DNA of 64,000 bases, from assembly GCA_963846575.1 (NCBI GenBank), contig CAWJWJ010000002.1, positions 2,112,001-2,176,000 of the forward strand. Reading direction: 5' to 3'. The DNA is from an uncultured Nitrospiraceae bacterium. Lineage in GTDB: Bacteria; Nitrospirota; Nitrospiria; Nitrospirales; Nitrospiraceae. Each line of letters starts with the position of its first letter. Within the stretch, counting starts at the first letter, position 1. Of this stretch, positions 2,321-48,596 are shown one piece after another. The notes under the pieces were generated by a model, which saw only the letters and a list, made by a program, of their open reading frames with translations, ran no database searches and was not told the origin of the DNA. Position numbers and translations under genes: made by a program.

Positions 2321-2495
2321 GACGATTGTGACTCTAATTCCTCCGTCTATCTCCTCTGTCATTGCCCTCCCTCGAAGCTTCTCGGTTCATGCGCGCCAAC
2401 GCGGTCTATGGTTTCAGCAATCTACTATCTCGGCCGGGTGAACGACCCACCCTCCGCTGGATCCCGGCGCATCCTGAATGGTACTGTTGACTGCT

Positions 2496-3293
2496 ATGCG
2501 CGCCGTCTGGGTCACGGACATTCATCTCGATATTTTGAGCGACGCGGCATGCGCGAACTTCTCCGCGGCAATGGCTGCAGAACGTCCGGATGCCGTCTTT
2601 ATCACGGGGGACATTTCTATCGCTCCCTCCCTGATGGCGCATCTTCGTGCCCTGGCAGACCACATCCAAACACCTCTGTACTTCGTCCTCGGCAACCACG
2701 ACTTTTACCGAAGCTCTATTGCGCAGGTACGAGCCACTGTCAGTGACTGCTGCCGGACCCATCCCCTGCTTCGATATCTGCCGGATTTGGGCGTGGTGGA
2801 GCTGACTGCCTGCACCGGACTGGTCGGTCATGACGGGTGGGGAGACGCGCGATACGGCAACTATGCCGCATCCCCGGTGCGGTTAAATGATCATGTGCTC
2901 ATCCGGGAATTGACGCAGCTCGATCCTGGTACGCTGCACACGCAGCTCAATCAGTTAGGAGACGAAGCGGCCAGTTATCTCCAAGAAATTTTGCCTGGCG
3001 CGCTTGACCGCTATCAGCATGTGATCCTCCTGACCCATGTCCCCCCGTTCAAGGAGGCTTGCTGGTACGAGGGTCGGCTGGGTAACGATGACTGGCTGCC
3101 GTTCTTTACCTGTCAGGCGGTCGGCGATGTATTACGCGAGTTGATGATCCGGTATCCGGACCGACGCCTGACGGTGTACTGCGGGCACACCCACCACGCC
3201 GGTACAGCCCAGGTCCTGCACAATCTTCAAGTCGTCACCGGTGCCGCAGAGTATGGGAACCCGAGGGTGAACGAGGTGATCGAGATTGTGTGA
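2496..3293 (+). CDS. Calcineurin-like metallophosphoesterase
   Basis: Motifs DIH, GD, GNHD, TH and GHTH. Confidence 0.9.
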   Translation: MRAVWVTDIHLDILSDAACANFSAAMAAERPDAVFITGDISIAPSLMAHLRALADHIQTPLYFVLGNHDFYRSSIAQVRATVSDCCRTHPLLRYLPDLGVVELTACTGLVGHDGWGDARYGNYAASPVRLNDHVLIRELTQLDPGTLHTQLNQLGDEAASYLQEILPGALDRYQHVILLTHVPPFKEACWYEGRLGNDDWLPFFTCQAVGDVLRELMIRYPDRRLTVYCGHTHHAGTAQVLHNLQVVTGAAEYGNPRVNEVIEIV

Positions 3294-3483: not shown

Positions 3484-3663
3484 TCATGAATGTTGATGAT
3501 CATGGGCTCCGTGGTCGCCCTGGTGTTCATGGTCATGGTCTGCGGCTGTTTCATGGGTGTGGCCATGCACATGTTCGTGAACATGCGGATGAGTGTGATT
3601 GTCAGACTGTCCATGGCTGTGCGCGTGGCTGTGTTCATGCTTGTGCTGGTGGGAACCCTGCAT
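3484..3663 (-). CDS. 59-aa histidine-rich mini-protein (Hpn-like candidate Ni-binding/storage peptide)
   Basis: Manual translation MQGSHQHKHEHSHAHSHGQSDNHTHPHVHEHVHGHTHETAADHDHEHQGDHGAHDHQHS* has 22 His in 59 aa. GAGGAGGAG directly upstream. Co-directional downstream of hypB. Confidence 0.8.
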   Translation of the reverse strand: MQGSHQHKHEHSHAHSHGQSDNHTHPHVHEHVHGHTHETAADHDHEHQGDHGAHDHQHS

Positions 3664-3849
3664 AACTCCTCCTCATGATCGGGACTCGTGGAAACGATCA
3701 TCCGCCGCCATGGTTAAAAGCTACCATAGCCTAACCCTCTTCCCGTAGTATTTTCGTGGTTACACCTGGCAACGTGGCCTTCCTCCCCGCCGGCCCGCGC
3801 TCTGGGAGAAACGTGGGGCCCACCTCAGCATCCACCCCGACCGTCCTGA

Positions 3850-4677
3850 TCAGCGTAAAGGGGCCTGGACCACTGCCCGAACCTGCTTGCGGAGCCAATC
3901 GTACCACCCCTGCATCCCGTCACCGGAAACCGCAGAGACCAGAAAAATTTCCAAACTCGGGTTCACCGTCCTGGCATGTGCCAGGCATCGCTCTACATCA
4001 AAGCTGAGATGCGGGAGCAGATCGATCTTGTTCAGCAATAACACCTGCGCAGCACGAAACATGTGGGGGTATTTGAGCGGCTTGTCCTCGCCCTCGGTCA
4101 CGGACAGGATCGCCACCTTCGCCTGTTCGCCCAAATCGAACAGCGCCGGACAGACCAGGTTTCCCACATTCTCGATCAGCACCAGGGAGTGAGCCGGTGG
4201 CGCCAGTTGCTCGACTGCCCGGGCCACCATGTCTGCTTCTAGATGACATCCCACCCCCGTATTGATTTGCATGACGCGGCATCCGGTCCTTCGAATCCGT
4301 TCGGCATCGTTGACCGTGTCTTGATCGCCTTCGATCACCTGAATCGGCAGCTCGCCCTTCAGGTCAAGAATGGTCCGTTCAAGAAGGGTGGTCTTGCCTG
4401 ACCCGGGGGAACTGACCAGATTGAGCGCCACAATGTCCCGGCCTTGAAACCAACCACGGTTCCGCTCCGCTAGACGGTCGTTCTTCGCCAGCACGGCCTC
4501 CCGCAGCACAATGGTCTTGCCGTCCACATGAACATGCTCGCCATCGGGATGCCCATGGGCGGGACTGTGAGGGTGGTCATGAGGTTCGTGATGTGACTGC
4601 AGTTTCACCGTCTCTCCGGTAGTCGGATCAGTCATCCGGGGCACGGCGTCCTCAGAGCATCCGCATGTCGTACACAT
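3850..4677 (-). CDS. hypB: Hydrogenase nickel-incorporation GTPase HypB
   Basis: N-terminal MCTTCGC Ni site, His-rich linker, SSPGSGKTT P-loop, GCHL, ENVGNLVCP, NKID. Start overlaps the hypA stop (TGATG). Confidence 0.97.
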   Translation of the reverse strand: MCTTCGCSEDAVPRMTDPTTGETVKLQSHHEPHDHPHSPAHGHPDGEHVHVDGKTIVLREAVLAKNDRLAERNRGWFQGRDIVALNLVSSPGSGKTTLLERTILDLKGELPIQVIEGDQDTVNDAERIRRTGCRVMQINTGVGCHLEADMVARAVEQLAPPAHSLVLIENVGNLVCPALFDLGEQAKVAILSVTEGEDKPLKYPHMFRAAQVLLLNKIDLLPHLSFDVERCLAHARTVNPSLEIFLVSAVSGDGMQGWYDWLRKQVRAVVQAPLR

Positions 4678-5006
4678 CAGAGCGTCACCATTTCCGTAAT
4701 GAGCAGTTCCTCGCCCGATAGCCGATGGAGATTCAGCGAGCCGCAGCGGCAGCGTGCAACCAGGTGTTCCACATCCATATCGATTCCACAGTCGCGGCAC
4801 CGGGCTCTCCCGGGCACGTCTATCACTTCGAGTCTCGCACCTTCCAGCAGCGTCCCCTTGGCTACGACGTCAAAACAAAACCGGATCGCATCGGGAAGAA
4901 CCGCGCTCAACGCCCCCACTTTTAACGTTACCTGCGTGACCTTGGAGCCGTTCGCGCGTTCGCTCACAATCGCCACGATGTTCCGCGTGATGCTCAGCTC
5001 GTGCAT
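4677..5006 (-). CDS. hypA: Hydrogenase nickel metallochaperone HypA
   Basis: MHELSI N-terminus; CRDC and CRCGS Zn ligands; GEEL. Confidence 0.97.
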   Translation of the reverse strand: MHELSITRNIVAIVSERANGSKVTQVTLKVGALSAVLPDAIRFCFDVVAKGTLLEGARLEVIDVPGRARCRDCGIDMDVEHLVARCRCGSLNLHRLSGEELLITEMVTL

Positions 5007-5560
5007 GCCAGTCCCGTCTGCTGGGGGTGATGAGCGGCTTCCGTCACGTCAAAGAGATGATCGAACGACTCCGCCCACAACCGTCTTGTAAGATCTGCCT
5101 TCATGTGACGAAGCCGTAGTTGATCCCCTGGCCGCTCCCTCGGCGTGCTAAGGCGGTCGACCAGGACGAAGAACCCCTTGGGAATGAACCCTTCCCTCAC
5201 GGCCACCCGGACCGTTCGCGCCCCGTCGTCCACCCACCAGGTGAACTGCAGATCTTTATGACATTGGCCATCGAGCTCCGGCTGTGTTAACCGGTACCGG
5301 CCTCTGCTGACACAGCGCGTCACGTACTCAACAGCGTCCCGCACGCCAGGCCCGGGATGCCCACTGGTCACCGTGAGCGACCGTCGGTCCCATACCGCCA
5401 CCTTTGAGAAATAGTCTCCCATCCGCTGCATCGCGCGGAACGCAACCGTGGCACCCCAGATAGCTCCGCCCTGATGAAAGTGCAGCAAGCCGTCGTAATC
5501 GAGCCGCTCGAGCCGGCCGTCATCGAGGATCTCCAGAGTCTGTATAGGCGGAGTCACCAT
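4994..5560 (-). CDS. FmdE-like hypothetical protein within the hyp operon
   Basis: 188 aa; LLHFHQGG..G...AFRAM and HPGPGVRDAVEYVTR resemble FmdE-like metal-binding proteins; overlaps the hypA start. Confidence 0.55.
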   Translation of the reverse strand: MVTPPIQTLEILDDGRLERLDYDGLLHFHQGGAIWGATVAFRAMQRMGDYFSKVAVWDRRSLTVTSGHPGPGVRDAVEYVTRCVSRGRYRLTQPELDGQCHKDLQFTWWVDDGARTVRVAVREGFIPKGFFVLVDRLSTPRERPGDQLRLRHMKADLTRRLWAESFDHLFDVTEAAHHPQQTGLACTS

Positions 5561-5575
5561 GCGGTCACACCTCGT

Positions 5576-6706
5576 TCAACAGATCCGCGGCAACTGATCG
5601 CCGACCAGGGTGTCGACCACCCGCAGGCCGCCGAACGCCGTCGCCATCACCACCGCGCCCTTCGGGCTTTCCTTGACCTCTCCGATGATCGCACTGCCGC
5701 GCCCGGCCGGGTGCCGGTGCATGGTCTCCAGGACGGCATCGGCTCGCTCGCGAGGCAGGATTGCCACCAGCTTGCCCTCGTTGGCCAGGTACAGGGGATC
5801 CAGGCCCAGAATTTCACAGGCGCCCCGCACCCGTTCTTGAACGGGAATCGCCGACTCCGTCAGATGAATGCCGACTCCGGACGTGGAAGCAAATTCGTTC
5901 AACACCGTGGCGACACCGCCTCGCGTGGCATCCCGGAGGCAATGGATGTCGGGGCAGACCGTCAACATGTCCTGCACCAGCTCATGGAGCGGTTGCGTGT
6001 CGCTTTCCACCGACGACTCCAGCGCCAGCTCGTTGCGCGCAAGTAGGATTGCAATGCCGTGATCGCCGATATGGCCATTGGTCATTACGAGATCTCCCGG
6101 ACGCGCACGGGCAGCCGAAATCGCCACCTCATTTCGGATGACGCCGATCCCGGCCGTGTTGATGAACAGTTTATCGGCCGCCCCACGTTCCACCACTTTC
6201 GTGTCTCCCGTAACAATGCTCACCCCCGCCCCCCTGGCGGCGGCCTTCATGCGGAGCACCACCTGGCCCAACGTGTCGATCAAGAGCCCCTCTTCGAGAA
6301 TCATGCCGCAGGATAGAAAGAGAGGGATCGCCCCGCTCACCGCGAGGTCGTTGATCGTCCCATGCACCGCCAGTTCCCCGATGCTGCCGCCCGGAAAGAA
6401 CAGCGGGTTGACGACATAACTGTCGGTGGTGAAGGCCAGCCTCGTGCCTCGTTGCCGGAGGTCATCCAACGACAGGACCGCTTGATCCTCCAGTGCGGCC
6501 AGCAGCGGATTATCGAACGCCGTCACAAACAGCTCTTCGATGAGCTCCCGCATCGCCTTGCCGCCGCTCCCATGGGCCAGCGTGATGCGCTTGTCGCGCA
6601 TGCACTCGAGCCAGGAGATGGCAGATTCCTCGGTCGACGATGGCCGAGATTGCGGGTCGAGCATGGGGTGACGCATGACGCATCCTTTGTCCCGTTGCGG
6701 CATCAT
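5576..6706 (-). CDS. hypE: Carbamoyl dehydratase HypE
   Basis: ITLAHGSGG, FTTDSYVV, GDTKVV, RDATRGG and C-terminal PRIC. Start is 6706 or 6676. Confidence 0.97.
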   Translation of the reverse strand: MMPQRDKGCVMRHPMLDPQSRPSSTEESAISWLECMRDKRITLAHGSGGKAMRELIEELFVTAFDNPLLAALEDQAVLSLDDLRQRGTRLAFTTDSYVVNPLFFPGGSIGELAVHGTINDLAVSGAIPLFLSCGMILEEGLLIDTLGQVVLRMKAAARGAGVSIVTGDTKVVERGAADKLFINTAGIGVIRNEVAISAARARPGDLVMTNGHIGDHGIAILLARNELALESSVESDTQPLHELVQDMLTVCPDIHCLRDATRGGVATVLNEFASTSGVGIHLTESAIPVQERVRGACEILGLDPLYLANEGKLVAILPRERADAVLETMHRHPAGRGSAIIGEVKESPKGAVVMATAFGGLRVVDTLVGDQLPRIC

Positions 6707-7848
6707 GCCGGAACCTTGAGGGGCTTCAGACTATCCCGATCGATCCACCCGTAATTGTAATACGCGGCGCAGGCGCCTTCCGTGGAGACCATGAGGGCGC
6801 CGAGCGGATTTTCAGGGGTACAGGCAGTCCCGAAGACTTTACATTGAGGCGGTTTGATGACGCCCTTCAAGACCTCACCGCATTGACAGGAGGTCGGATC
6901 CGCAATGGTCACGTTCGGCATCGAGAACTTGCGCTCCGCATCGAAGCCGGCAAAGGCCTGCCGGACGCGCACGCCGGAGTAGTCGATTGAGCCCAGGCCG
7001 CGCCACTCGAAAAACTCCCGCAATTCAAACACGGCTTGCATCGCGTCGAGCGCTTGCGCATTGCCTGCTTCGGGCACGACACGCCGGTACTGATTCTCCA
7101 CCTCGCAGCGTCCCTCCGCCATCTGCTTGAGGACCATCCAGACGGATTGGAGAATGTCCAACGGTTCGAACCCGGCCACCACGATCGGTTTTCGATACCG
7201 TTCCGCGATAAAACCATAGGGCCGCGTACCGATGACCATGCTCACATGACCCGGCCCCAGAAACGCATCCACCTGGAGGTCAGGCGAATCCAGGACCGCT
7301 TTGATGGTGGGAATGATCGTGATGTGATTACAGAACAGCGAGAAGTTGGATAGGCCCTCCCGTTGCGCCTGCAGTACCGTAAAGGCGGTGCTCGGCATCG
7401 TGGTCTCAAACCCCAGCGCCAGAAATATCACCTCCCGCTCGGGATTGGCCCTGGCAATTTTCAGCGCGTCCAGCGGTGAATAGACCATGCGGACGTCCGC
7501 CCCTTCCGCCTTGGCTTGAAGGAGACTTTTCTTCGAGCCGGTGACGCGCATGGCGTCCCCGAACGTCGTCATGATGACCTCCGGACGCTGCGCCAACGCC
7601 ACGCAGTCATCGACGCGCCCGCGGGGAAGGACACAGACCGGACAACCGGGTCCGTGGATGAACTCCACTTCCTCCGGCAGCATCTTACTGACCCCGTAGC
7701 GGAAAATGGTGTGCGTATGCCCTCCGCACACTTCCATGATGCCGAGGGGGCGCTTTCGGCACAGCTCGATGCGGCCGACCAGGCCGCGAATCTCCCGCAG
7801 CAGCCATTGCGCTTTTTCCGGATCGCGAAACTCATCCACGAATTTCAT
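6703..7848 (-). CDS. hypD: Hydrogenase maturation factor HypD
   Basis: Start MKFVDEFRD; MEVCGGHTH, GPGCPVC, GFETT, PGHVS, EGACAAYY. Confidence 0.97.
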   Translation of the reverse strand: MKFVDEFRDPEKAQWLLREIRGLVGRIELCRKRPLGIMEVCGGHTHTIFRYGVSKMLPEEVEFIHGPGCPVCVLPRGRVDDCVALAQRPEVIMTTFGDAMRVTGSKKSLLQAKAEGADVRMVYSPLDALKIARANPEREVIFLALGFETTMPSTAFTVLQAQREGLSNFSLFCNHITIIPTIKAVLDSPDLQVDAFLGPGHVSMVIGTRPYGFIAERYRKPIVVAGFEPLDILQSVWMVLKQMAEGRCEVENQYRRVVPEAGNAQALDAMQAVFELREFFEWRGLGSIDYSGVRVRQAFAGFDAERKFSMPNVTIADPTSCQCGEVLKGVIKPPQCKVFGTACTPENPLGALMVSTEGACAAYYNYGWIDRDSLKPLKVPA

Positions 7849-8530
7849 GCTGTGCCTCCCCGTTGCCCCGCCCTCGGTCATCGGCCAGGAGGGTATGCAC
7901 CAGATCCCACAGGATGTGATAAATGGCGACGTGGCATTCTTGGATCCGGTGAATGCTGGTCGTGTCCACCACCAGGCAGTGATCGAGGGCGGGAGACCGC
8001 GCCATGAGGCCGCCGTTACCCCCTGATAATCCGATCGTGACGAGCCCCAACTCCTTGGCTTTTTCGAAGGCGCGCAGGAGATTCGGGGAGTTGCCGCTGG
8101 TGCTGACGCCGACGAGTCCATCGCCGGCTCGCGCATGGGCGATCACTTGACGCACGAACACATGTTCGAAACCGACATCGTTCCCGACCGCGGTGAGCAT
8201 CGCCACATCGGCATCCAGATTCACGGCGGGCAATGCAGGCCGGCCGGCGGTCACCGGGTGGAGAAACTCCACGGCGATGTGCGCGGCATCACAGCTTGAG
8301 CCGCCGTTCCCCATCGTCAGCAATCGGCCGTTTCGACGATACACCCCGGCCATGGTGTTCGCGACCGCGACGACCTCGGGGCCTTTGTTCGCAAAGAACC
8401 CTGCCTTGACGGCGAGACTGTCCTCGGCCTTCAGCTTGACCGATGCCAACAATTCCGCATCGAGACGGGCAGGCGCGGGCAACTGCTCATGTAAGAACGG
8501 ATAGAGTCCGTGCAAAAAATCGTGCGGCAT
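7832..8530 (-). CDS. SIS-domain protein, phosphoheptose isomerase (GmhA)-like
   Basis: GNGGSSCDAAH, TAVGND.GF..VF.RQ, STSGNSPN, RIQECH; lies between hypC and hypD. Confidence 0.88.
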   Translation of the reverse strand: MPHDFLHGLYPFLHEQLPAPARLDAELLASVKLKAEDSLAVKAGFFANKGPEVVAVANTMAGVYRRNGRLLTMGNGGSSCDAAHIAVEFLHPVTAGRPALPAVNLDADVAMLTAVGNDVGFEHVFVRQVIAHARAGDGLVGVSTSGNSPNLLRAFEKAKELGLVTIGLSGGNGGLMARSPALDHCLVVDTTSIHRIQECHVAIYHILWDLVHTLLADDRGRGNGEAQHEIRG

Positions 8531-8537
8531 CACATCC

Positions 8538-8819
8538 TCAGGTTTGTCCGGACACCCGCATCGCCCGAAGCTCTGCCTGTACCTCACCGAGTTCGCTCAA
8601 TAGCTCGAGAGTCCGCTGCGCTTCCTCCGGGTCGACCCGGCTCATGGCAAACCCCACGTGGACTAACACCCACTCTCCGACGCAGGATTCAGGGGAATGC
8701 TGCTCGTCCACGATACAGGCGATGTTCACCGTCCGCCTCACTCCGCCGACGTCGACGACGGCCAGCTTCGGCTGCTCGCGGTCCAGTTCGACAATACGTC
8801 CTGGAATTCCCAGACACAT
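8538..8819 (-). CDS. hypC: Hydrogenase chaperone HypC
   Basis: MCLGIPG N-terminus; VGEWVLVHVGFA. Confidence 0.97.
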   Translation of the reverse strand: MCLGIPGRIVELDREQPKLAVVDVGGVRRTVNIACIVDEQHSPESCVGEWVLVHVGFAMSRVDPEEAQRTLELLSELGEVQAELRAMRVSGQT

Positions 8820-8826
8820 GGCGACC

Positions 8827-11235
8827 TCATCGGTATTGAGTCAGGGCCCTTGCGGCCGCAACGGCGGCCTGGCCAAGGGACAGCCCCCCGTCATTGGAAG
8901 GCACCTGATGATGGGAGAGTACGGTCAACCCCATCCTCTCCAAGCGGGCCGTGACCAGTTCGCAGAGCACCTGATTCTGAAACACCCCTCCGGAGAGCGC
9001 CACGTGACCGACGGTTCGCTCGCCTTCCCCTTCTTTCATCCGCGTAATCTTGTCCGCCATAGCGCAGATGGCCTGTGCCAATCCCTTATGAAACCGGGCA
9101 GCCATCACGGGGTGCGGCGTCTTCAGGATGAGGTCACCGAGGAGCGCGGACCACATGGCCAACGGCTCAATGTAAGGAAGCGTCGTGCCTCTCAGGTAGG
9201 GAATCGTGAAGGGGTACGCGAGGATGTCGGCTTCCTGCTCCAAGGTCGATCGATCGACGAGCGCTTCCAGCTCCACCGCGGCCTGACCTTCATAACTGGC
9301 ACGGTCTCGGCAGATTCCCATCGCCGCAGCCACGGCGTCGAACAGCCGTCCGCAGGAACTGGCCGGAGGACTGTTGATTCGCCGCGCCAGCATCTGGTCG
9401 AGCAGGCCGCGCGGCTTTTGCTCCAGAAAGTGATAGAGGTCCAATTCGTGATAGTTCATGGCAAATCGGGCCCACCCCAGTTCAGCCATCAGATGGGCAT
9501 AGGTATTTCTCCAGGGTTCCATGACAGCCTGTTCTCCGCCTAGCATCGGCACCGGCTTAAAGGTGCCCACTCGCGTGAACGTTCGATAGTCTGCGAGCAG
9601 GAACTCGCCGCCCCAGAGTTGCCCCTCATTCCCGTATCCCAGCCCGTCGAGCGCGATGCCCAGTACAGGGGAATGATCGAGGGGAATTCCGTTCTCTACG
9701 AGACAGGCGGCGATATGCGCATGATGATGCTGGACCTCGTAGACCGGCAGGTCACGCTCGGCCGCGAGTTTCTGCCCGTATTTGCGTGAAAGATATTCCG
9801 GGTGGTGATCGACGGCGAGGAAATGCGGCACATGCGCGAACAGTTCCGCGTAATGACGAAGCGCCCGTGTGAAGTCCGCCTGGGTCAGCGCGTCCGCCAG
9901 ATCTCCGATGTGATGGGAGATCACGGCCTGGCCATCCTTCAACAGGCAAAAGGTGTTCTTCAACTCCCCGCCCATGGCGAGCACGCGTGGTGCCCCCTTG
10001 AATCCTGCCGGGAGCGGGATCGGCGCCGGAGCATAACCCCGGCTGCGACGCAGGAGTCGCGGGCGGCCGCCGATCACCTTCGTCACGGAGTCATCGACCC
10101 GCTGGGCAATCGGACGGTCATGCACGAGAAAATACTCCGCGATGGTTCCCAGATGCATCCTGGCCAAATGATTATCGATCCATTGCGGTTCATCGGCACG
10201 GTTTCCGCTCGTCAGAACGATCGGCCGTTCCATACGCCTGAGCATCAGATGGTGAAGCGGCGTGTTGGGCAACATGACCCCCAGGGTGCGAACGGCCGGC
10301 GCGACGCTTGGAGCCACACCGGCTCCGGTCCCGCATTTCAGAATGACAATCGGGGCTTGAGGGCTTTGAAGCAGCAACCGCTCCTGCTCGGAGACTTCAC
10401 AATACCTTCTGACGACCCGGAGATCGCGCGCCATCAGCGCGAACGGTTTGGCTTCTCGAGCCTTCAGGCCTCGAAGCCGGGACACGGCCTCTTCTTGCGT
10501 CGCGTCACAGGCGAGCTGCACACCTCCCAAGCCCTTGATGGCAACAATCTGTCCTTTTTGAATGAGGGTACAGGCGGCATCCACGGGGTCCATCATCGTC
10601 ACCGCCTCGAGCGCGATGGGCTTTCCATCCGTCCGTTCCAGCGTGACCCTGGGTCCGCACCGGTGGCAGGCAATCGGCTGGGCGTGAAACCGCCGGTCGT
10701 CAGGGTCCTGATACTCGGCCTCACATTCGGCACACATCGGAAAGCCGCTCATGGTCGTCCCGGAACGGTCATAGGGAATCTTCTCTTGAATCGTCACACG
10801 CGGTCCGCAGTGGGTGCAGTTCGTGAATGGGTAGCGGTAGCGTCGAGCGAAGGGATCGAGGACCTCCTGCACGCAGTCGGGACAGGTCGTGGCGTCCGGC
10901 ACGACGCCTGTGCTTACTTCACCGCATCCGCTGTCAAGGATGAGGAAGCCGGGCGGCAGATCCTCAACTGAAGCCGGTTCGGAGATGACCTCATCGATCC
11001 GCGCCAGGACCGGTGGCTGTTCCTTCAAGTGGTCGACAAACCGCCGGAGGCTTTCAGAGGTCCCGATCGCATAGATCCGCACACCCTGTCCGTCATTCAA
11101 GACATGGCCCCGAAGCTGATGCTGCCGCGCCAGACGCCATACTGTGGGGCGAAATCCAACGCCCTGAACGAGACCGTGAACCCGGATCAGGACCGCGGCA
11201 GGTTCTGCGGTACGTAGAAATCCAAAGGGGGTCAT
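8827..11235 (-). CDS. hypF: Carbamoyltransferase HypF
   Basis: Acylphosphatase VQGVGFRP; Zn fingers (CPDC/CTHCGPR, CAEC/CHRCGP); YrdC-like KGLGG; HHHAH; LSGGVFQN; NDGGLSLGQ. Confidence 0.97.
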   Translation of the reverse strand: MTPFGFLRTAEPAAVLIRVHGLVQGVGFRPTVWRLARQHQLRGHVLNDGQGVRIYAIGTSESLRRFVDHLKEQPPVLARIDEVISEPASVEDLPPGFLILDSGCGEVSTGVVPDATTCPDCVQEVLDPFARRYRYPFTNCTHCGPRVTIQEKIPYDRSGTTMSGFPMCAECEAEYQDPDDRRFHAQPIACHRCGPRVTLERTDGKPIALEAVTMMDPVDAACTLIQKGQIVAIKGLGGVQLACDATQEEAVSRLRGLKAREAKPFALMARDLRVVRRYCEVSEQERLLLQSPQAPIVILKCGTGAGVAPSVAPAVRTLGVMLPNTPLHHLMLRRMERPIVLTSGNRADEPQWIDNHLARMHLGTIAEYFLVHDRPIAQRVDDSVTKVIGGRPRLLRRSRGYAPAPIPLPAGFKGAPRVLAMGGELKNTFCLLKDGQAVISHHIGDLADALTQADFTRALRHYAELFAHVPHFLAVDHHPEYLSRKYGQKLAAERDLPVYEVQHHHAHIAACLVENGIPLDHSPVLGIALDGLGYGNEGQLWGGEFLLADYRTFTRVGTFKPVPMLGGEQAVMEPWRNTYAHLMAELGWARFAMNYHELDLYHFLEQKPRGLLDQMLARRINSPPASSCGRLFDAVAAAMGICRDRASYEGQAAVELEALVDRSTLEQEADILAYPFTIPYLRGTTLPYIEPLAMWSALLGDLILKTPHPVMAARFHKGLAQAICAMADKITRMKEGEGERTVGHVALSGGVFQNQVLCELVTARLERMGLTVLSHHQVPSNDGGLSLGQAAVAAARALTQYR

Positions 11236-15080: not shown

Positions 15081-15953
15081 CTACAGGGCTTGAACGCCTG
15101 GGTCGTGCGGGGCAGGCCAGCGGGCGACAAGGGCGGCCAACCCGCTATCCCAACGGACAGGGAGCGTCCATGCCAGGCCTTCGTCGACCGCCTGATCCCG
15201 AAGAAACTCCTGGGCATGGACCACCCGGTCGCCGCGGCTGTTTTTCAGCTTGATCAAGAGCCCTCCCGATGCCACATGACGCACGGGCAGCAACAGCAGC
15301 GCTTCGTCCTTCTTGAGCAGCACCAGACTCTCCAATCCATTGAAATAGGTCGCATAGACCTCCGCCGTAAGATAGATATTGCCGTGACGTATGTGTATCT
15401 GAGCTGTGTTCGCCGACCCTGTCAGGGAGGAGGTGTCAGCATCCGCCCTGTCCGGCTCGCCCGGTGGTCGGCCTCTTTTCTCGCGGAGCTGAGCCTGGAT
15501 GGAGGCCACGACCCGATCAGCCGCCCGGGACACCTCCGGACTCAATTCGCATCCGAGGTTCGTGGTAGCCGCCTCCACCAGGTAGACCGTCACGTCGCGG
15601 GGAAACGTCGCGCCGAATATTTTCTTCCCCGCATACAGTGCATGGTCCCACCGGAAGTTGTGGAGACTGTACCCGGGCTCCGGCCGGTGTGCGAGTTCTT
15701 CACCCGGCACCTTGAAGACCGAGCCGGGCTGCGACCCACTCGCGCAGGCATCCACGAGAATCAAGGAGCGGGAGCCTCGCGCCTGGAACATGACGTCCAT
15801 GCCTGCCGTCCCGGCATCGAACACCGCCACTTCCTCGCAGGGGCTGGCGGCCAGCCATTGTTGTACGCGGCGGGCCACGATGACACCGACCCCGTCATCG
15901 CTGCGGTTCAGATTGCCGCAACCGATGACTGTATGCATGCCTGTCGAGGCCAT
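15081..15953 (-). CDS. Hydrogenase maturation protease (HupD/HybD family) fused to an extra C-terminal domain
   Basis: VIGCGNLNRSDDGVG, DAGTAG, LILVDA, SLHNFRW; low-complexity linker followed by a ~95-aa domain; start overlaps the upstream stop (TGATG). Confidence 0.88.
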   Translation of the reverse strand: MASTGMHTVIGCGNLNRSDDGVGVIVARRVQQWLAASPCEEVAVFDAGTAGMDVMFQARGSRSLILVDACASGSQPGSVFKVPGEELAHRPEPGYSLHNFRWDHALYAGKKIFGATFPRDVTVYLVEAATTNLGCELSPEVSRAADRVVASIQAQLREKRGRPPGEPDRADADTSSLTGSANTAQIHIRHGNIYLTAEVYATYFNGLESLVLLKKDEALLLLPVRHVASGGLLIKLKNSRGDRVVHAQEFLRDQAVDEGLAWTLPVRWDSGLAALVARWPAPHDPGVQAL

Positions 15954-16282
15954 CAGATCCTCCACAACCGGCAGGACCAATCCTTTTCAACAGGAAGGCG
16001 AAGTTCGGGCAGGTCGCAGAACCGGCGATGCGTCACAAAATACATGCAGGTTTCGCAGGATTGTGTGAGATCGTCGTCCGGCTCGCCGGACAGATAGGGA
16101 GCGAGGGTCATTCCCGCCACCACGAGTTTACGGTCATAGTCGTCGGATGGAAGGGCCTGGAGACGGGTTATTAGATCCCGCACTTCGTCGCTGTCATAGG
16201 CGCGGGGCTCTACTTCAGTCTTGAGCCCGTCGGCCAGTCGCTGCCGGAGTCTGGTTCGAACGCTGTCCTCATCCATATCCAT
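15953..16282 (-). CDS. Small 4-Cys protein, HiPIP-like (paralog B)
   Basis: C-terminal CETC-x9-C-x14-CRLWRI; no signal peptide. Confidence 0.75.
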   Translation of the reverse strand: MDMDEDSVRTRLRQRLADGLKTEVEPRAYDSDEVRDLITRLQALPSDDYDRKLVVAGMTLAPYLSGEPDDDLTQSCETCMYFVTHRRFCDLPELRLPVEKDWSCRLWRI

Positions 16283-16312: not shown

Positions 16313-16627
16313 TTAGATTCTCCACAGCCGGCACCACCAATCCGGTTCTACCGGAACGGCCAACTCGGGCAAATCGCACCACTTGCGATGAACCAGATAA
16401 TACATACATTCCAGGCAGCGCATCTGGTCCGGACCATAGGGCTTGTGGGTGAAACCTCCAAGGACGAGTTTGCCCTCGAGATCGTCGGGGGACAGCGCGC
16501 GCAGTTCGTCCAGCAGTTTGGTGAACTCCACGTGGGTTTCCGGGAACGGCTCAGTCTGAGTCTCCAGGCCGCTCTCCAGAATGCGGGCAATCTTCTGCCG
16601 GAGTTTCTCTTCTTCTTCGGGGCGCAT
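16313..16627 (-). CDS. Small 4-Cys protein, HiPIP-like (paralog A)
   Basis: Start MRPEEEEK after a GAGGGGA RBS; CLEC-x9-C-x14-CRLWRI; no signal peptide. Confidence 0.75.
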   Translation of the reverse strand: MRPEEEEKLRQKIARILESGLETQTEPFPETHVEFTKLLDELRALSPDDLEGKLVLGGFTHKPYGPDQMRCLECMYYLVHRKWCDLPELAVPVEPDWWCRLWRI

Positions 16628-16796: not shown

Positions 16797-18392
16797 CTAT
16801 CCGATTTTAAACCGGGCGAGTTCCTTCCCCGTCTTGGCGTCGTGTGCATGGACCGTGCAGACCAGGCAGGAGTCGAACGATCTGGCGACATGCCCGACTT
16901 CCACGGGATCGGTGGGATCGGCGATCGGCGCCCCCATCAACGCCTCTTCGATCGGTCCCTTGCTGCCCTTTGCATCTCTGGGTCCGACATTCCAGGTGGT
17001 TGGCGCCACGATCTGATAGTTCTTGATCTTCCCTCCCTTCACCTCGATCCAATGACAGAGCGCACCGCGAATCGCTTCCGTCGCACCCCAGCCCCGCCCG
17101 TCTTTTTCCTGAGGCTTGATGTACCAGGGTTCGTTCAATCGGAACTCTCGCAGGCAATGCTCCGCCTGCCGGTAGAGTTTGATCGTTTCGTGCATGCGCG
17201 CCAGCTGCCGCAGGTGCAGGCTCGGGCCGCCCATTTTCTTATACATGTCCAGAATGAACCCGTCGTAATGCTGCCAGGATTCGCCATGCCTGCCGCCCGC
17301 CACGACCTGCCTGGCGAAGGGCCCCGCTTCGAGGCGCCCCAGTTCCGTATGACTCACCGCCGTACACCAGGAGTAGGCCCCGTTGAAATCCGTCGTATTG
17401 TTCGTCATGGCCTTGGTCACCCGATCATAGGGGTGGGTATCGGTCCTGCCCTCGTCGTACCAGGAATGCATCGTGTTCTCCCGCGTGAACTCCTGGCTCA
17501 TGATCGTATGCCGATCGGTCGAACCGTCGTAGACCCCGCCCTTCATAATGAGCGAGGCATTGCGGCCTTCGATCGTGGGTTTTTGATACTTATCTTCGTG
17601 GGGCAGATAGCCCCAGGAGATGTATTTCCCGACTCCACCGCCGTACTCATGCAGCCCGATGTCCATTCCCATGCGCCAGTAGAATCCGAGATCCGAATTG
17701 GCATGCCCAGGCTTTTCGTCCAGCCAGGCCATGAACTCTTCGTGGGTCTTGATCTGCTCGTACCGTTCCAAGGAACAGCCGAGCCAGACCGGTTCGAGCC
17801 AATTGTTCTTGTAGTATTCCAGGATCGACCAGGATCTGGTCACGTCGGACAAGGTGGGGGCACACATCACTCCTCCGGGGACCATGTAACTGGAATGCGG
17901 CCACTGGCCTCCGAGGAGGGCATAGATTTCCACCGGTTTTCCGGAAATCGTGACCCCGATCTCGTACGATTTCCCTGTAAAGGGTGCGAAACGCTTGCAG
18001 GCCTCTTCGTAAAACCGGCTGTTACGGTACTTCCTGTTTGTGAGATCGATGACATACAGACCGTAGAAATAACGCGGTTGGCTCTGGAGGCTCTCGGCAA
18101 TCTGACCGAGGTTGCGGGCCAGGATAGCATTGCGTGGTACGGTGGTCTGCCAGGCCGTATCTAGCGCCCATGCCGCGCAGGTCAGATGCGAAGCGCCGCA
18201 TATGCCGCAGGCTCTGGGGGTCACCACGAGTCCGGCCTGCGGATCTTTGTCGCGGAGGATGATCTCAAACCCGCGGAACAATTCCGCCTGGGTCCAGGCA
18301 TTGGTGACGACGCCGTTGTCCACTTCGACCCGCACGTCCAGATCTCCTTCAACGCGGCCAACCGGGGAGATATCGAGAGTTTGAACAGCCAT
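16797..18392 (-). CDS. hucL: Group 2a [NiFe]-hydrogenase large subunit (HucL/HupL)
   Basis: VGRVEGDL; L1 PRACGICG; L2 SFDSCLVCTVH followed by a cleavable C-terminal extension. Confidence 0.95.
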   Translation of the reverse strand: MAVQTLDISPVGRVEGDLDVRVEVDNGVVTNAWTQAELFRGFEIILRDKDPQAGLVVTPRACGICGASHLTCAAWALDTAWQTTVPRNAILARNLGQIAESLQSQPRYFYGLYVIDLTNRKYRNSRFYEEACKRFAPFTGKSYEIGVTISGKPVEIYALLGGQWPHSSYMVPGGVMCAPTLSDVTRSWSILEYYKNNWLEPVWLGCSLERYEQIKTHEEFMAWLDEKPGHANSDLGFYWRMGMDIGLHEYGGGVGKYISWGYLPHEDKYQKPTIEGRNASLIMKGGVYDGSTDRHTIMSQEFTRENTMHSWYDEGRTDTHPYDRVTKAMTNNTTDFNGAYSWCTAVSHTELGRLEAGPFARQVVAGGRHGESWQHYDGFILDMYKKMGGPSLHLRQLARMHETIKLYRQAEHCLREFRLNEPWYIKPQEKDGRGWGATEAIRGALCHWIEVKGGKIKNYQIVAPTTWNVGPRDAKGSKGPIEEALMGAPIADPTDPVEVGHVARSFDSCLVCTVHAHDAKTGKELARFKIG

Positions 18393-18430
18393 GATCAGTC
18401 TCCTTTGGGGTCCTGTTTCGATGTCCTGAT

Positions 18431-19393
18431 CTAGACCACGAACATGTCTTGTTCAGCCCATGCCGGGGCCGCGTTCTTGGCAGCGCTCGTGAGGGCAATG
18501 TAGCCCTTCTTGTCGACGCCTTGCGGGAGATCTTTGGGAACACCCATCACGGTCTGGGTCTTGAACACGGTCCCCGGTGCCAGGTCGAAAAAGGGGAATT
18601 CAGGCTCCGTGCAGCCCAGGCATGGCATGCCGGCACGCGTTTTCGAGGATTGCCGGTTCCACAGTATCCGGTTGCAGGGAGAGTGCGTCATGGGTCCGCG
18701 GCAGCCGAGGTCATAGTAGAGGCAGCCTTTGCGTTGTCCGAACTCGGTGGCGGACACTTTGTAGGCGAAGTGCATGTTGCGGGTGCAACCGGTCTGCGTG
18801 AAGCTTTGGAAAAAGGTCTTGGGTCGCTGAAACTCGTCGAGGCCGATGTCGCCTCCGCGGCCGGTGGCGACGGCGACGACGATTTGCGTGATCCAGTCCG
18901 GATGGGCGGGGCAGCCGGGAATATTGATGACAGGGAGACCGGCTTTGGAGCGGAAGTGCTGTCCAAGAAATCCACCATGGCTTCGTTTGAGAAACTGCAA
19001 GCCTTGCGAGTCGCTCGGGTTGGGGGCGGTCGCGGGGATGCCGCCCCAGGTCGCGCAATCGCCGACGGCCACCACAAAATTGGCCGCGTCGGCCAGTTCC
19101 TTGACCCACTGTTTCATGGCACGGCCGGCAAATCGATTCCACTCCCCCGTTCCGTTGGGGGCATTGACCACGGTGCCTTCAAACACGAAGATGTCCAGGA
19201 CGATCTTGCCGGAGATGCAGTCCTTCAGAATCCGCTGAAGATTGTCTCCCAGTTCCACGCCCAGAGAAGGATGCCAGAGCACGTTGATGCCAAAATCCGT
19301 GACAAGGTCGCAGGCACTGGGCTCTTCTGCATTCAGGAAGGACATCGTGTTACCGGAGCAAGCCCCGCCTTGTAACCAGAGTAGATTTGCCAT
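18431..19393 (-). CDS. hucS: Group 2a [NiFe]-hydrogenase small subunit (HucS/HupS), cytoplasmic
   Basis: MANLLWLQGGACSGNTMS, GDCA, PGCPAHP, FTQTGCTR, GCRGP, PCLGC; no Tat signal or membrane anchor. Confidence 0.95.
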   Translation of the reverse strand: MANLLWLQGGACSGNTMSFLNAEEPSACDLVTDFGINVLWHPSLGVELGDNLQRILKDCISGKIVLDIFVFEGTVVNAPNGTGEWNRFAGRAMKQWVKELADAANFVVAVGDCATWGGIPATAPNPSDSQGLQFLKRSHGGFLGQHFRSKAGLPVINIPGCPAHPDWITQIVVAVATGRGGDIGLDEFQRPKTFFQSFTQTGCTRNMHFAYKVSATEFGQRKGCLYYDLGCRGPMTHSPCNRILWNRQSSKTRAGMPCLGCTEPEFPFFDLAPGTVFKTQTVMGVPKDLPQGVDKKGYIALTSAAKNAAPAWAEQDMFVV

Positions 19394-42868: not shown

Positions 42869-43786
42869 ATGAAGGGCACTGTAATTCTCCACACCTTCAA
42901 TAAACTCTGTGCATTGGGAGTCATGTTTTCAGCATGTGTGGGAATAGCGAGTACTCCGCAAAGTTATGGGGCCGGAGCCTGGACGAATGAACCATCGGGA
43001 TTTTCCGTGGTAGTAGACTGTCCCTTTTCCAACTCCCTCTGTCCCGGTCTGTGGGATGCCTACAACTCAGCCTCATTCGCAAATGTCCCAGGTGGACCAG
43101 TATCGCCGAACACCGTCCTTGACGACTATATTGGGGCGGGATCCTCTACAGGCAACGGCATGTGGGGTGCGAATCTTTCTGATGCGAAGGAATTGTACAT
43201 AGGAACCTGGTGGAGCACTAATAGCGACTTCCAGGGCATGTGTAATAACGCCAACAAGATGTTGTTCGCGCGCAGCCCCTCGATCGACAACAACTTCCTC
43301 GTTTGGCAAGGCCCACCAGGGTCTCCCAAAACACTAAAGTGGTACATGCAGGCCACATATGATAACTGCGGACATCCTGGCGAGTTTGGAATGTGCTACT
43401 CCAAGGGTGATGGAACCGGCTGGTTTGAGCCGAATGTTGGCAATGGAACGGTCTCGCACGGTTCGGGCTGGCACAGGATCGAAATTTATCTTAAGACTAG
43501 CACCACAAAAACATCACGAGACGGGAGCGTAAAATGGTGGATTGACGGGCAACCTGTCGGCAACTATCCAACGATCAATCTTTCTCCTGGTGGCCTGCAG
43601 GAGTTCCAAATCAACCACACCTGGGATGGAAGTAATTGTCTGGTGGCGCCGAATCGTGACATGAGTAAATCTTGGCACCATTATTGGGACCACCTCCACA
43701 TATCAACAGGACGAGGAGGAGGTTCGACCGACCAGCCTGCGGGGCCACCCGCCTCCCCGACCCTGCGGAGTGTAACTACTCCGTAA
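42869..43786 (+). CDS. Secreted beta-jelly-roll protein, polysaccharide-lyase-like (paralog 1)
   Basis: GAGGAG RBS; signal peptide; WHRIEIYLK...DGSVKWWIDG...YWDHLHIS pattern. Confidence 0.65.
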   Translation: MKGTVILHTFNKLCALGVMFSACVGIASTPQSYGAGAWTNEPSGFSVVVDCPFSNSLCPGLWDAYNSASFANVPGGPVSPNTVLDDYIGAGSSTGNGMWGANLSDAKELYIGTWWSTNSDFQGMCNNANKMLFARSPSIDNNFLVWQGPPGSPKTLKWYMQATYDNCGHPGEFGMCYSKGDGTGWFEPNVGNGTVSHGSGWHRIEIYLKTSTTKTSRDGSVKWWIDGQPVGNYPTINLSPGGLQEFQINHTWDGSNCLVAPNRDMSKSWHHYWDHLHISTGRGGGSTDQPAGPPASPTLRSVTTP

Positions 43787-47140: not shown

Positions 47141-47622
47141 AACAACAGCACCCTCGGTTGATGATTAAACTCGCTTTGATCGAATTACAATCGCTGGCGT
47201 AACGTCAGACGACACCTCATTGTCTGAACACACCTTAAGTGATTCTGGTTGTTCCAGAAAGTGAGCGACCGCATGAAGGGATTCCAAGCGTCCTGCCATT
47301 TTCATCTCACAATGTCTGTTAGTCTGTTCTATGTATCGCCCAGGGGAGACTGTCAGAAATCCAGAGATCGGTCAAATAATTGATGGCCCCCGGTAGTCAC
47401 ACCCCTTACCTCTATCGATCAGCCAGGCGACAGGACAGCATATTGTTCAGTAACGCATGTGCGATCGCGAACCTACCTGGTGGTGTAAGCCTACACATGC
47501 CACGAGAACTTAAACCCCTAGGGCTTCTGATATTACGCGGCAGCTGACGATTACTCCTTGAGAAGATGCATATCCTATGGGATCTTTGGTTTTTCAGCTC
47601 TGTCAATCGCCAATGCTCTCGC

Positions 47623-47638
47623 TGGCACAACTGTTGCG
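47623..47638 (+). promoter_or_regulatory. Sigma54 -24/-12 promoter
   Basis: TGGCACAACTGTTGCG matches TGGCAC-N5-TTGC; about 60 nt before ATG 47697. Confidence 0.75.
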
Positions 47639-47696
47639 TCTCACAGCCACAAGTCATACACTTGGTCGGAAAATCTATGATGCTTGGAGGCGACCG

Positions 47697-48596
47697 ATGA
47701 AGGTCAACCGTTGGATAGCTGTGGCCCTGCTGATCACCATCCCCAATCTCATGCCCAGCCGGACCGGAGGCATTGCAGAGGCAGCTGGAGGCTGGCCAAA
47801 CGAACCAACAGGATCAACGGTCATCGTGGACTGTCCTTTTTCCGGTAACCTCTGCCAGGGCATGTGGGACGCATATAACTCTGCTTCATTTTCAGTAGAT
47901 GCAACAGGTCCACTTTCACCAGGAAAGGTTTTGGACACCTTTATGGCCGTGAATTCGGTCACGGGAAACGGACAATGGGGTGTGGCATTACCTGATGCGA
48001 AGGAACTGTATATCGGTACTTGGTGGAGCACAAATTCAGATTTTCAGGGTTATTCAAACAACCAGAACAAAATGTTGTTCGCCAGGCGACCTGAGATCGA
48101 CAATAATTTTCTCGTCTGGCAAGGTTTTCCCGGACAGCCTAAGACCTTAAAGTGGTACGGCCAGATGACTTACGACAATTGCGGTTTGGCCGGCACATTC
48201 GGCATGTGTTATTCCCGGGGTGATGGGACTGGCTGGTTCGAACCGAACACTGGAGCCAATGCCACAGTGGCGGCGGGTTCCGGGTGGCACAAAATCGAAA
48301 TCTACCTTAAAACCAGCACGACGAAAACTTCGCGCGATGGCATCGTCCGATGGTGGCTGGACGGAGCAATGGTTGGTAATTATTCAGGTGTAAATCTCTC
48401 ACCAGGCGGCCTGCAGGATTTCCAAATCAACCATGCCTGGGACGGTTCAGGCAGCTGCGCGACACGTGATTGCACCAAGTCGTGGCACCACTACTGGGAC
48501 CACTTATACATCGCCGTGGGTCGAGGAACACCTTCCGCTGACCAACCGCCAGGCCCGCCCGCTGCCCCTAGAATAGCGGGCATAACAGTTCCTTAG
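47697..48596 (+). CDS. Secreted beta-jelly-roll protein, polysaccharide-lyase-like (paralog 2)
   Basis: GGAGG RBS; signal peptide MKVNRWIAVALL...AEA; long blocks identical to 42869..43786. Confidence 0.65.
   Translation: MKVNRWIAVALLITIPNLMPSRTGGIAEAAGGWPNEPTGSTVIVDCPFSGNLCQGMWDAYNSASFSVDATGPLSPGKVLDTFMAVNSVTGNGQWGVALPDAKELYIGTWWSTNSDFQGYSNNQNKMLFARRPEIDNNFLVWQGFPGQPKTLKWYGQMTYDNCGLAGTFGMCYSRGDGTGWFEPNTGANATVAAGSGWHKIEIYLKTSTTKTSRDGIVRWWLDGAMVGNYSGVNLSPGGLQDFQINHAWDGSGSCATRDCTKSWHHYWDHLYIAVGRGTPSADQPPGPPAAPRIAGITVP

Follow-up and report, generated by a model that had tools for sequence, protein, structure and literature searches.

A conserved histidine-rich mini-gene beside the hydrogenase maturation genes of a Nitrospiraceae bacterium, and its possible role in nickel buffering

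Introduction

What is a protein of 59 residues, 22 of them histidine, doing next to the genes that insert nickel into a hydrogenase? The window analysed here, a 64,000-nucleotide stretch from an uncultured Nitrospiraceae bacterium, raises this question just past hypB. An earlier note had read the frame as a stand-alone nickel reservoir or chaperone for a group 2a hydrogenase, closing the maturation operon. We asked whether the frame is a gene, what accompanies it in relatives, and which function fits both its sequence and its neighbours.

Results

The hydrogenase locus and the histidine-rich frame

The hydrogenase genes of the window lie on the minus strand. A NiFe hydrogenase of group 2a type is encoded at 16797–19393, with a large subunit of 531 aa and a small one of 320 aa. 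The large subunit is closest to PDB entries 7uus and 7utd (E 1e-183; next 1e-62), which we take to be the group 2a enzyme Huc. According to entries in Table S1 of PMC9381531, HucL and HucS of Nitrospira moscoviensis have the same lengths as the present subunits. The locus also has accessory genes and a sigma-54 regulator. After the large subunit come two tandem paralogs of about 105 aa (15953–16282 and 16313–16627, minus strand), whose tail reads CxxCMY...CxLPEL..PVE..W.CRLWRI; they have no Pfam or NCBIfam match and are conserved in relatives. Elsewhere in the window, a polysaccharide cluster holds two paralogous Trp/Gly-rich, apparently secreted proteins of about 305–340 aa (42869–43786 and 47577–48596, plus strand), which end in PAGPPA/PPGPPA-type tails.

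Among the maturation genes, hypE, hypD, a SIS/gmhA-like gene, hypC and hypF occupy 5576–11235 (minus strand). Between hypE and hypA lies a conserved frame of 188 aa (4994–5560, minus strand) with no Pfam, NCBIfam or PDB match, whose N-terminus may resemble FmdE-like proteins. The frame is present in the hyp clusters of relatives and in nine of 80 hypB loci, and both it and the histidine-rich gene are missing from the fetched parts of the clusters in genomes G203 and G204. The nickel metallochaperone gene hypA (PF01155) follows at 4677–5006, and then hypB, encoding the nickel-insertion GTPase (3850–4674, both on the minus strand). HypB has a His-rich N-terminal tract, and its start is assigned here to the Met of MCTTCGC.

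The hypB stop (3850) is followed, after 186 nt, by the histidine-rich frame, which runs from ATG to TGA at 3484–3663 (minus strand). It encodes 59 aa with 22 His and no Cys, and its N-terminus has no hydrophobic stretch and no signal peptide; on all these points the earlier note was right. The His residues fall into blocks of 7 (positions 5–17), 8 (23–37), 3 (43–47) and 4 (51, 54, 56 and 58), with no HH pair. The minus-strand run ends at a convergent metallophosphoesterase gene (2478–3293, plus strand), which stands outside the hydrogenase and His-gene system.

For histidine density this frame ranks first among the 47,310 open reading frames of the genome, with 16 His per 40 aa against 11 in the runner-up. 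When the peptide was shuffled, only 4 of 200,000 shuffles contained two alternating-His runs of at least seven. The His pattern is therefore not due to chance.

Conservation and spread of the gene

Within the same family, Nitrospiraceae, 38 of 371 genomes gave peptide matches, at 43 places in total, five genomes having two matches each. A profile search placed the gene in 31 of 244 genomes, all at least 90% complete. None of 250 genomes from other families of the phylum gave a match, and none was obtained in viral contigs or in plasmids, the latter searched with the low-complexity filter on. The C-terminal motif occurred in one of 50 genomes reached via hypB loci, and that copy was the sequence of a known member. 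As far as these genome sets go, the family lives mainly in Nitrospira-type bacteria.

Forty full-length copies were extracted and 39 rows were aligned. All 40 encode 58–63 aa with 21–24 His and no Cys, and 32 have no HH pair. Twenty His columns are invariant in 39 of 39 rows and two are conserved in 38 of 39, in the same blocks of 7, 8, 3 and 4, so that the His frame is conserved in relatives. The last block has the consensus HxHxHxx[DE]HGxHxHxH with an invariant Gly (Gly52 here). Residues between the histidines vary freely and are mostly polar; within the strands these positions are chiefly taken by Glu, Ser, Ala, Thr, Lys and Gln. Both His codons are in use at every His column, and the median dN/dS is 0.11 for the 118 of 741 pairs with pS between 0.05 and 0.6. 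Between the present copy and three close relatives pS is 0.70–0.77 and pN 0.13–0.16. Purifying selection acts on the gene.

We also considered whether the frame is spurious low-complexity sequence, or is what is left of a lost nicO/ureH gene with its His-rich loop, because in relatives the gene after hypB has an HxH-rich loop and is missing here. The selection just described speaks against this, as does the conservation of an ATG, a ribosome site and a stop in 40 of 40 copies, which also bears out the earlier description of a stand-alone small gene. Of the two other sense frames, one is open in 3 of the 40 copies and the second in none; the antisense frame is open in 18. Moreover, the mini-gene stands beside an intact nicO in six genomes, and the window contains no nicO remnant. 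We regard this explanation as scarcely credible; on the sequence evidence the frame is a genuine gene, and its family has no name yet.

Some copies are degenerate, with a lost start, an early stop or shortened blocks. The one in G378 (L152:5900-6250) has lost its start and the one in G266 (L191:4973-5074) stops after the first block; a third is found in G140 (L190:4676-4978). The gene thus decays in some lineages. Integrase, Tn3, rve, Fic or Gp49 genes adjoin several copies.

Upstream signals

The strong ribosome-binding site described earlier is confirmed: the Shine-Dalgarno-like sequence GAGGAGGAG lies at 3666–3674 (minus strand), separated from the ATG by 2 nt, with 4 nt between its AGGAGG core and the ATG. 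A Shine-Dalgarno-like word (GGAG, GAGG or GGGG) precedes all 40 copies. Further upstream, at 3718–3726 (minus strand), is an extended −10-like motif, TGnTAnnnT, likely to belong to a promoter of the His gene itself. The motif occurs within 100 nt upstream of 32 of the 40 copies; in 1000 shuffles the number averaged 3.3 and never exceeded 10. A sigma-70 scanner found no full promoter at the gene. The gene probably has its own promoter. As the present copy is among the 32, the description of the gene as closing the operon is doubtful where transcription is concerned.

The −10 motif is spanned by a spaced palindrome (3711–3737), whose core, GTTA-N15-TAAC, agrees in sequence and spacing with that of a perfect palindrome at the start of the genome's nikR (G000:C1:1222745-1222771). 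The nikR palindrome is unique in the genome. After nikR comes a 683-aa gene that, read by eye without a family scan, resembles a TonB-dependent receptor; the palindrome is a likely NikR box, and nikR with this gene a likely nickel-uptake unit. The GTTA-N15-TAAC core occurs seven times in the 4.2-Mb genome, nikR and the His-gene promoter being among the seven, and the His-gene palindrome differs from the nikR site at 5 of 14 positions. None of the other 43 upstream regions contains the core, so that it is not conserved in orthologs, and the best matches to a NikR box upstream of family members have 6.0 mismatches compared with 5.7 in shuffles. A family-wide NikR box was accordingly rejected. 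The palindrome at 3711–3737, recognised post hoc, is a possible NikR site of the present copy.

No riboswitch or structured leader was found, there being no Rfam match in 20 loci, and four flanking stretches showed no unusual RNA fold (z −1.1 to 1.7). Both results bear on a role without metal, as a proton buffer, a histidine reserve or a leader frame that senses His codons. A protein with 37% His would be expected to buffer near neutral pH, but none of these roles requires the fixed 7-8-3-4 register or the invariant Gly. No his biosynthesis gene follows any mapped copy, and here the next gene is convergent. We consider such a role very improbable, and a hisL-type attenuator, in which consecutive His codons precede his genes and RNA hairpins alternate, was rejected on the lack of downstream his genes, Rfam match and stable fold.

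Genomic context in relatives

In five genomes (G033, G075, G295, G161 and G271) hypB is followed by a NicO-family gene and then by one resembling tonB, and the His gene comes last; L031 and G271 are identical and were counted once. In G382 the His gene directly follows the NicO gene at a contig end. The present window has neither a nicO nor a tonB neighbour between hypB and the His gene, which we read, from the gene orders, as local loss of nicO(-tonB) with the His gene kept.

The earlier note had argued that buffering may matter because no nickel transporter is recognisable at the locus. The observation stands for the 64-kb window, where no such gene was found, and does not extend to the genome. 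Its only NicO-family gene lies at G000:C2:785216-785935 (L112:5217-5936), away from urease and hydrogenase genes; searches of the genome found neither HupE/UreJ nor CbiM. By eye, the NicO-family gene sits among molybdopterin genes (moaC, moaE, moaA-like) and accD/folC-like genes. The argument from a missing transporter therefore fails, both because of this gene and because five of the six hup-linked copies, plus one more at a contig end, follow a NicO-family gene. The urease cluster of the genome is at L189 (G000:C2:600000-614000). UreE was not found in the genome and, in the part of PMC7522533 that deals with it, is reported missing from other Nitrospira as well.

A divergent copy in G292 lies tail-to-tail with hypB. 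The AU test rejected its placement inside the hup-linked clade (p 0.007; one long-branch row was left out, and the group was named after the tree had been seen). This rejection suggests a second arrival of the His gene at a hyp cluster. G033, G075 and G295, which represent three genera, share one near-identical island (98.6–100%). Beyond the cluster end in these genomes (L111, L193 and L194) come genes for an integrase and the beta subunit of DNA polymerase III, and the island, which carries the group 2a hydrogenase, has likely moved recently.

A PF00374 search at E 1e-15, which probably misses group 3b enzymes, gave matches in 12 of 244 genomes. The His gene is carried by eight of ten group 2a genomes and by 23 of the 234 others, although the single island in G033, G075 and G295 means that the first figure overstates independence. 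Six of the eight have the gene at the end of hypB-(nicO-tonB); the G165 copy is away from its hydrogenase, and the G137 copy is lineage-resident, 3.5 kb upstream of hucS. Within genus g1, the only two of 39 genomes with the His gene are the only two with the group 2a hydrogenase.

These associations would suit a dedicated chaperone that hands nickel directly to HypB/HypA of the group 2a hydrogenase, the more so as the gene has been kept beside hypB here though nicO is gone, the G292 copy also adjoins hypB, and in P0013 a similar His module is fused to CooT, which we take to be the nickel chaperone of CODH. Against this, among the genomes that are at least 90% complete, 23 of the 31 carriers lack the large subunit of group 2a. 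Two of the ten group 2a genomes have no match to the His gene, and a hup cluster without it is present in G203 and G204. The C-terminal motif is missing from 49 of 50 other hypB-bearing genomes. Finally, the free variation between histidines leaves little conserved surface for a partner. A dedicated chaperone thus appears improbable, and a core accessory gene of group 2a hydrogenases was rejected on the same distribution.

The proposal that the protein is a nickel store for the group 2a hydrogenase holds in so far as the gene travels with hup maturation and nickel-import genes in several lineages; its specificity for that enzyme is not supported, given the carriers that lack it. The synteny downstream of hypB for which the earlier note proposed a search was found for the six hup-linked copies and G292, whereas 35 of 43 copies have neither a hyp nor a NicO neighbour (within flanks of about 4–8 kb, shorter at contig ends). 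Urease genes are present in 27 of the 31 carriers, and the remaining four have the hup island or hyp genes. Of the 213 non-carriers, 152 have them as well (Fisher p 0.08, the genomes compared being non-independent kin), so that 152 genomes combine urease with the lack of a His-gene match. UreE_N was detected in 4 of 27 urease-positive carriers and in none of 8 urease-positive non-carriers; loss of UreE thus does not explain the distribution of the His gene, and replacement of UreE was rejected. Judged by gene neighbourhoods, the nickel link of the family holds only in part.

The main rival to a nickel buffer is a general chelator that binds Zn, Cu, Co and Ni alike against excess, its location on hydrogenase islands reflecting carriage with mobile metal-related DNA. 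Five copies follow a PF13801 heavy-metal-resistance gene (G165, G223, G219 and G277, one region also having a Cu,Zn-SOD) or a ZIP transporter gene (G236), neighbours that speak for Ni no more than for Zn, Cu or Co. Downstream of the G231 copy lies a DUF326 gene, and the second G219 copy has a cupredoxin; further copies adjoin Fe-S cluster genes, two-component systems or mobile elements. The patchy spread (31 of 244), the genomes with two matches and the mobile-element genes beside several copies also fit a chelator. On the other hand, nickel-specific neighbours recur in separate branches (the hup clade, G292 and the look-alike L188, described below), most copies have no adjacent efflux pump, and each of the 31 carriers encodes a nickel enzyme or the maturation proteins of one. 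We consider a general chelator a serious possibility, though on balance an unlikely one.

Database searches and look-alikes

The family has no Pfam, NCBIfam (0 of 39 members) or PDB sequence match; as HMMER discounts biased, low-complexity sequence, the lack of matches says little about true absence. Foldseek gave no match at E 0.001 or better, a lone hairpin being a weak fold query, and the highest VIA Z, 3.5, was for long hairpins of a generic kind. A collection of 15 billion proteins contained none of 16 members or look-alikes with a correct start; the ESM Atlas contains the L185 protein. A profile search of 1.84 billion representatives returned seven proteins of 96–178 aa. In five the module is preceded by a long N-terminal stretch or a short extension, while the other two are partial and end differently; from their layout we read them as mis-called frames. 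The databases thus have a blind spot for this family. We found no description of it in the literature, mostly freely accessible papers, and no entry of about 59 aa was among the matches listed by a term search of Table S1 of PMC9381531, a result that is uninformative if the protein was absent from that study's database.

A metagenome scan with a pattern for the family's motif gave 599 matches, of which five were confirmed: three family members and two look-alikes, L185 (87 aa, MKG start, same C-terminal motif) and L188 (97 aa). The L188 gene stands in the order exbD-tonB-HoxN-his, convergent on nikR. L185, L188 and P0013 are tied to the family by motif layout and composition only, and lie outside the top 25 of 98 His-rich segments scored against the family profile. 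A strict layout pattern matched 39 of 40 members and, among the 98 segments, only L031, L184, L185, L186 and L188, none of which is a HypB or NicO tract. On this result, and because the gene has its own ATG, ribosome site and stop instead of being fused to a catalytic, chaperone or membrane domain, we rejected a tract detached from HypB or NicO.

By language-model features the nearest proteins are unnamed ESM Atlas clusters of 83–96 aa (0.91–0.93), to which the L185 protein is also nearest. They are longer than the present protein, come mostly from Thermodesulfobacteriota or Pseudomonadota and have no Pfam family or function; the recognition value of this comparison is below the tool's threshold, and it serves as a lead only. 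Separately, P0009, P0010 and P0014–P0021 are proteins of about 145 aa with an N-terminal HxH-turn-HxH tract followed by a helical domain. They belong to a large family, PF26551 in precomputed annotation, which is missing from the Pfam copy scanned.

Predicted structure

AlphaFold2, run on the 39-row alignment, paired residues 3–15 and 23–35 as a beta-hairpin (pLDDT 72–80, pTM 0.29; the alternating pattern may itself favour a hairpin in the model). Residues 36–59 have no assigned structure in the model. A longer hairpin, with pLDDT about 90, was predicted for the 97-aa L188 look-alike from its single sequence. From beta-strand geometry, we infer that the histidines of each strand line one face. 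The earlier suggestion that alternating histidines could form beta structure agrees with this prediction. The mostly polar residues between them leave no hydrophobic core, and folding is therefore likely to be driven by metal.

Discussion

The closest functional comparison is with Hpn and Hpn-2 of Helicobacter. In the parts of PMC4671568 that describe them, these are very His-rich, stand-alone cytoplasmic proteins of about 60 aa that annotation missed, in a host with both urease and NiFe hydrogenase, and nickel sequestration is likely to be the job they have in common with the present protein. The same source gives Hpn as 60 aa with 28 His, binding 5 Ni per chain and multimerising. Hpn, however, has its histidines mostly in runs and has one or two Cys-Cys motifs, whereas the present family has alternating His and no Cys; Hpn-2 has a Gln-rich tail that the present family lacks; and both are described there as confined to gastric Helicobacter, whereas the present members occur in Nitrospiraceae, the closest titled records being Nitrospira. 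Expression of Hpn and Hpn-2 is under NikR control; in the present family a NikR-like core lies over the promoter of the present copy only. Membership in Hpn was rejected for the lack of His runs and Cys pairs and the other lineage. By analogy, the 59-aa protein likely works like Hpn, though unrelated to it.

The tails of HypB, UreE and SlyD, and CooJ, have HxH runs near nickel pathways, and some HypB tracts and EamA tails contain HxH-turn-HxH stretches similar to the present protein. The loops of NicO, UreH and RcnA, too, have HxH runs near nickel pathways (for RcnA, as far as PMC11247825 covers it). The tracts of HypB, NicO, UreE, SlyD and CooJ, however, are parts of larger proteins and variable in length, whereas here the whole protein is the module, with constant His count and spacing, and the strict layout pattern fits none of these tracts. 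SCO4226 of Streptomyces is also a small His-containing nickel-binding protein proposed as a store, but it has 82 aa and a ferredoxin-like fold as described in part of PMC4186839, and the present family has no PDB sequence match.

We hold it somewhat probable that the 59-aa protein is a cytoplasmic divalent-metal buffer, most probably for nickel, with about five ions per chain, filled via NicO/HoxN and serving HypB/HypA or urease. An imidazole row built from His i and i+2 of adjacent strands would take up about five ions per chain, assuming four His to an ion, and the metal would be covered by the C-terminal HxHxHxx[DE]HGxHxHxH block or by a second chain. Nickel would enter by a NicO/HoxN-type permease, be held loosely by the protein, and be released to HypB/HypA for the hydrogenase, or to urease maturation in genomes without one. 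An accessory gene with its own promoter may have joined hydrogenase and nickel-import clusters more than once, and in the present genome would have been retained after its nicO(-tonB) neighbours were lost. Poly-His proteins bind several metals in vitro, according to the section of PMC4671568 on them. The readings as a HypB partner, as a protein without a metal role and as a spurious frame are less likely than a metal buffer or chelator.

The near-invariant 22 histidines and the drifting residues between them are unlike the known His-rich nickel stores, with their runs or variable tracts, and indicate a defined metal-binding geometry. A designed peptide, IHIHIQI, likewise has His at every second strand residue and binds metal across strands, and designed alternating-His peptides bind Zn in this way (PMC8431744). 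Those are synthetic 7-mers with a hydrophobic back face, whereas the present strands are polar between histidines, which makes a dry amyloid core unlikely. Tentatively, and with the chances rather against it, the modelled protein may be a natural histidine ladder: a coreless hairpin or three-stranded sheet that takes its fold by binding Ni(II) ions in a fixed row and is joined through metal bridges into sandwiches, tapes or barrels.

For Nitrospira-type bacteria, the analysis adds a missed gene to the cluster of the group 2a hydrogenase, the enzyme that, in the section of PMC9381531 devoted to it, lets Nitrospira use atmospheric H2. It also puts forward a candidate for nickel buffering in a lineage most of whose genomes lack UreE (present in 4 of 35 genomes; compare the relevant part of PMC7522533). 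The histidine ladder, if true, would be reused with other strand lengths in other phyla, having been overlooked by gene callers and HMM filters, and would be a natural counterpart of the designed alternating-His peptides and a new architecture for bacterial metal storage.
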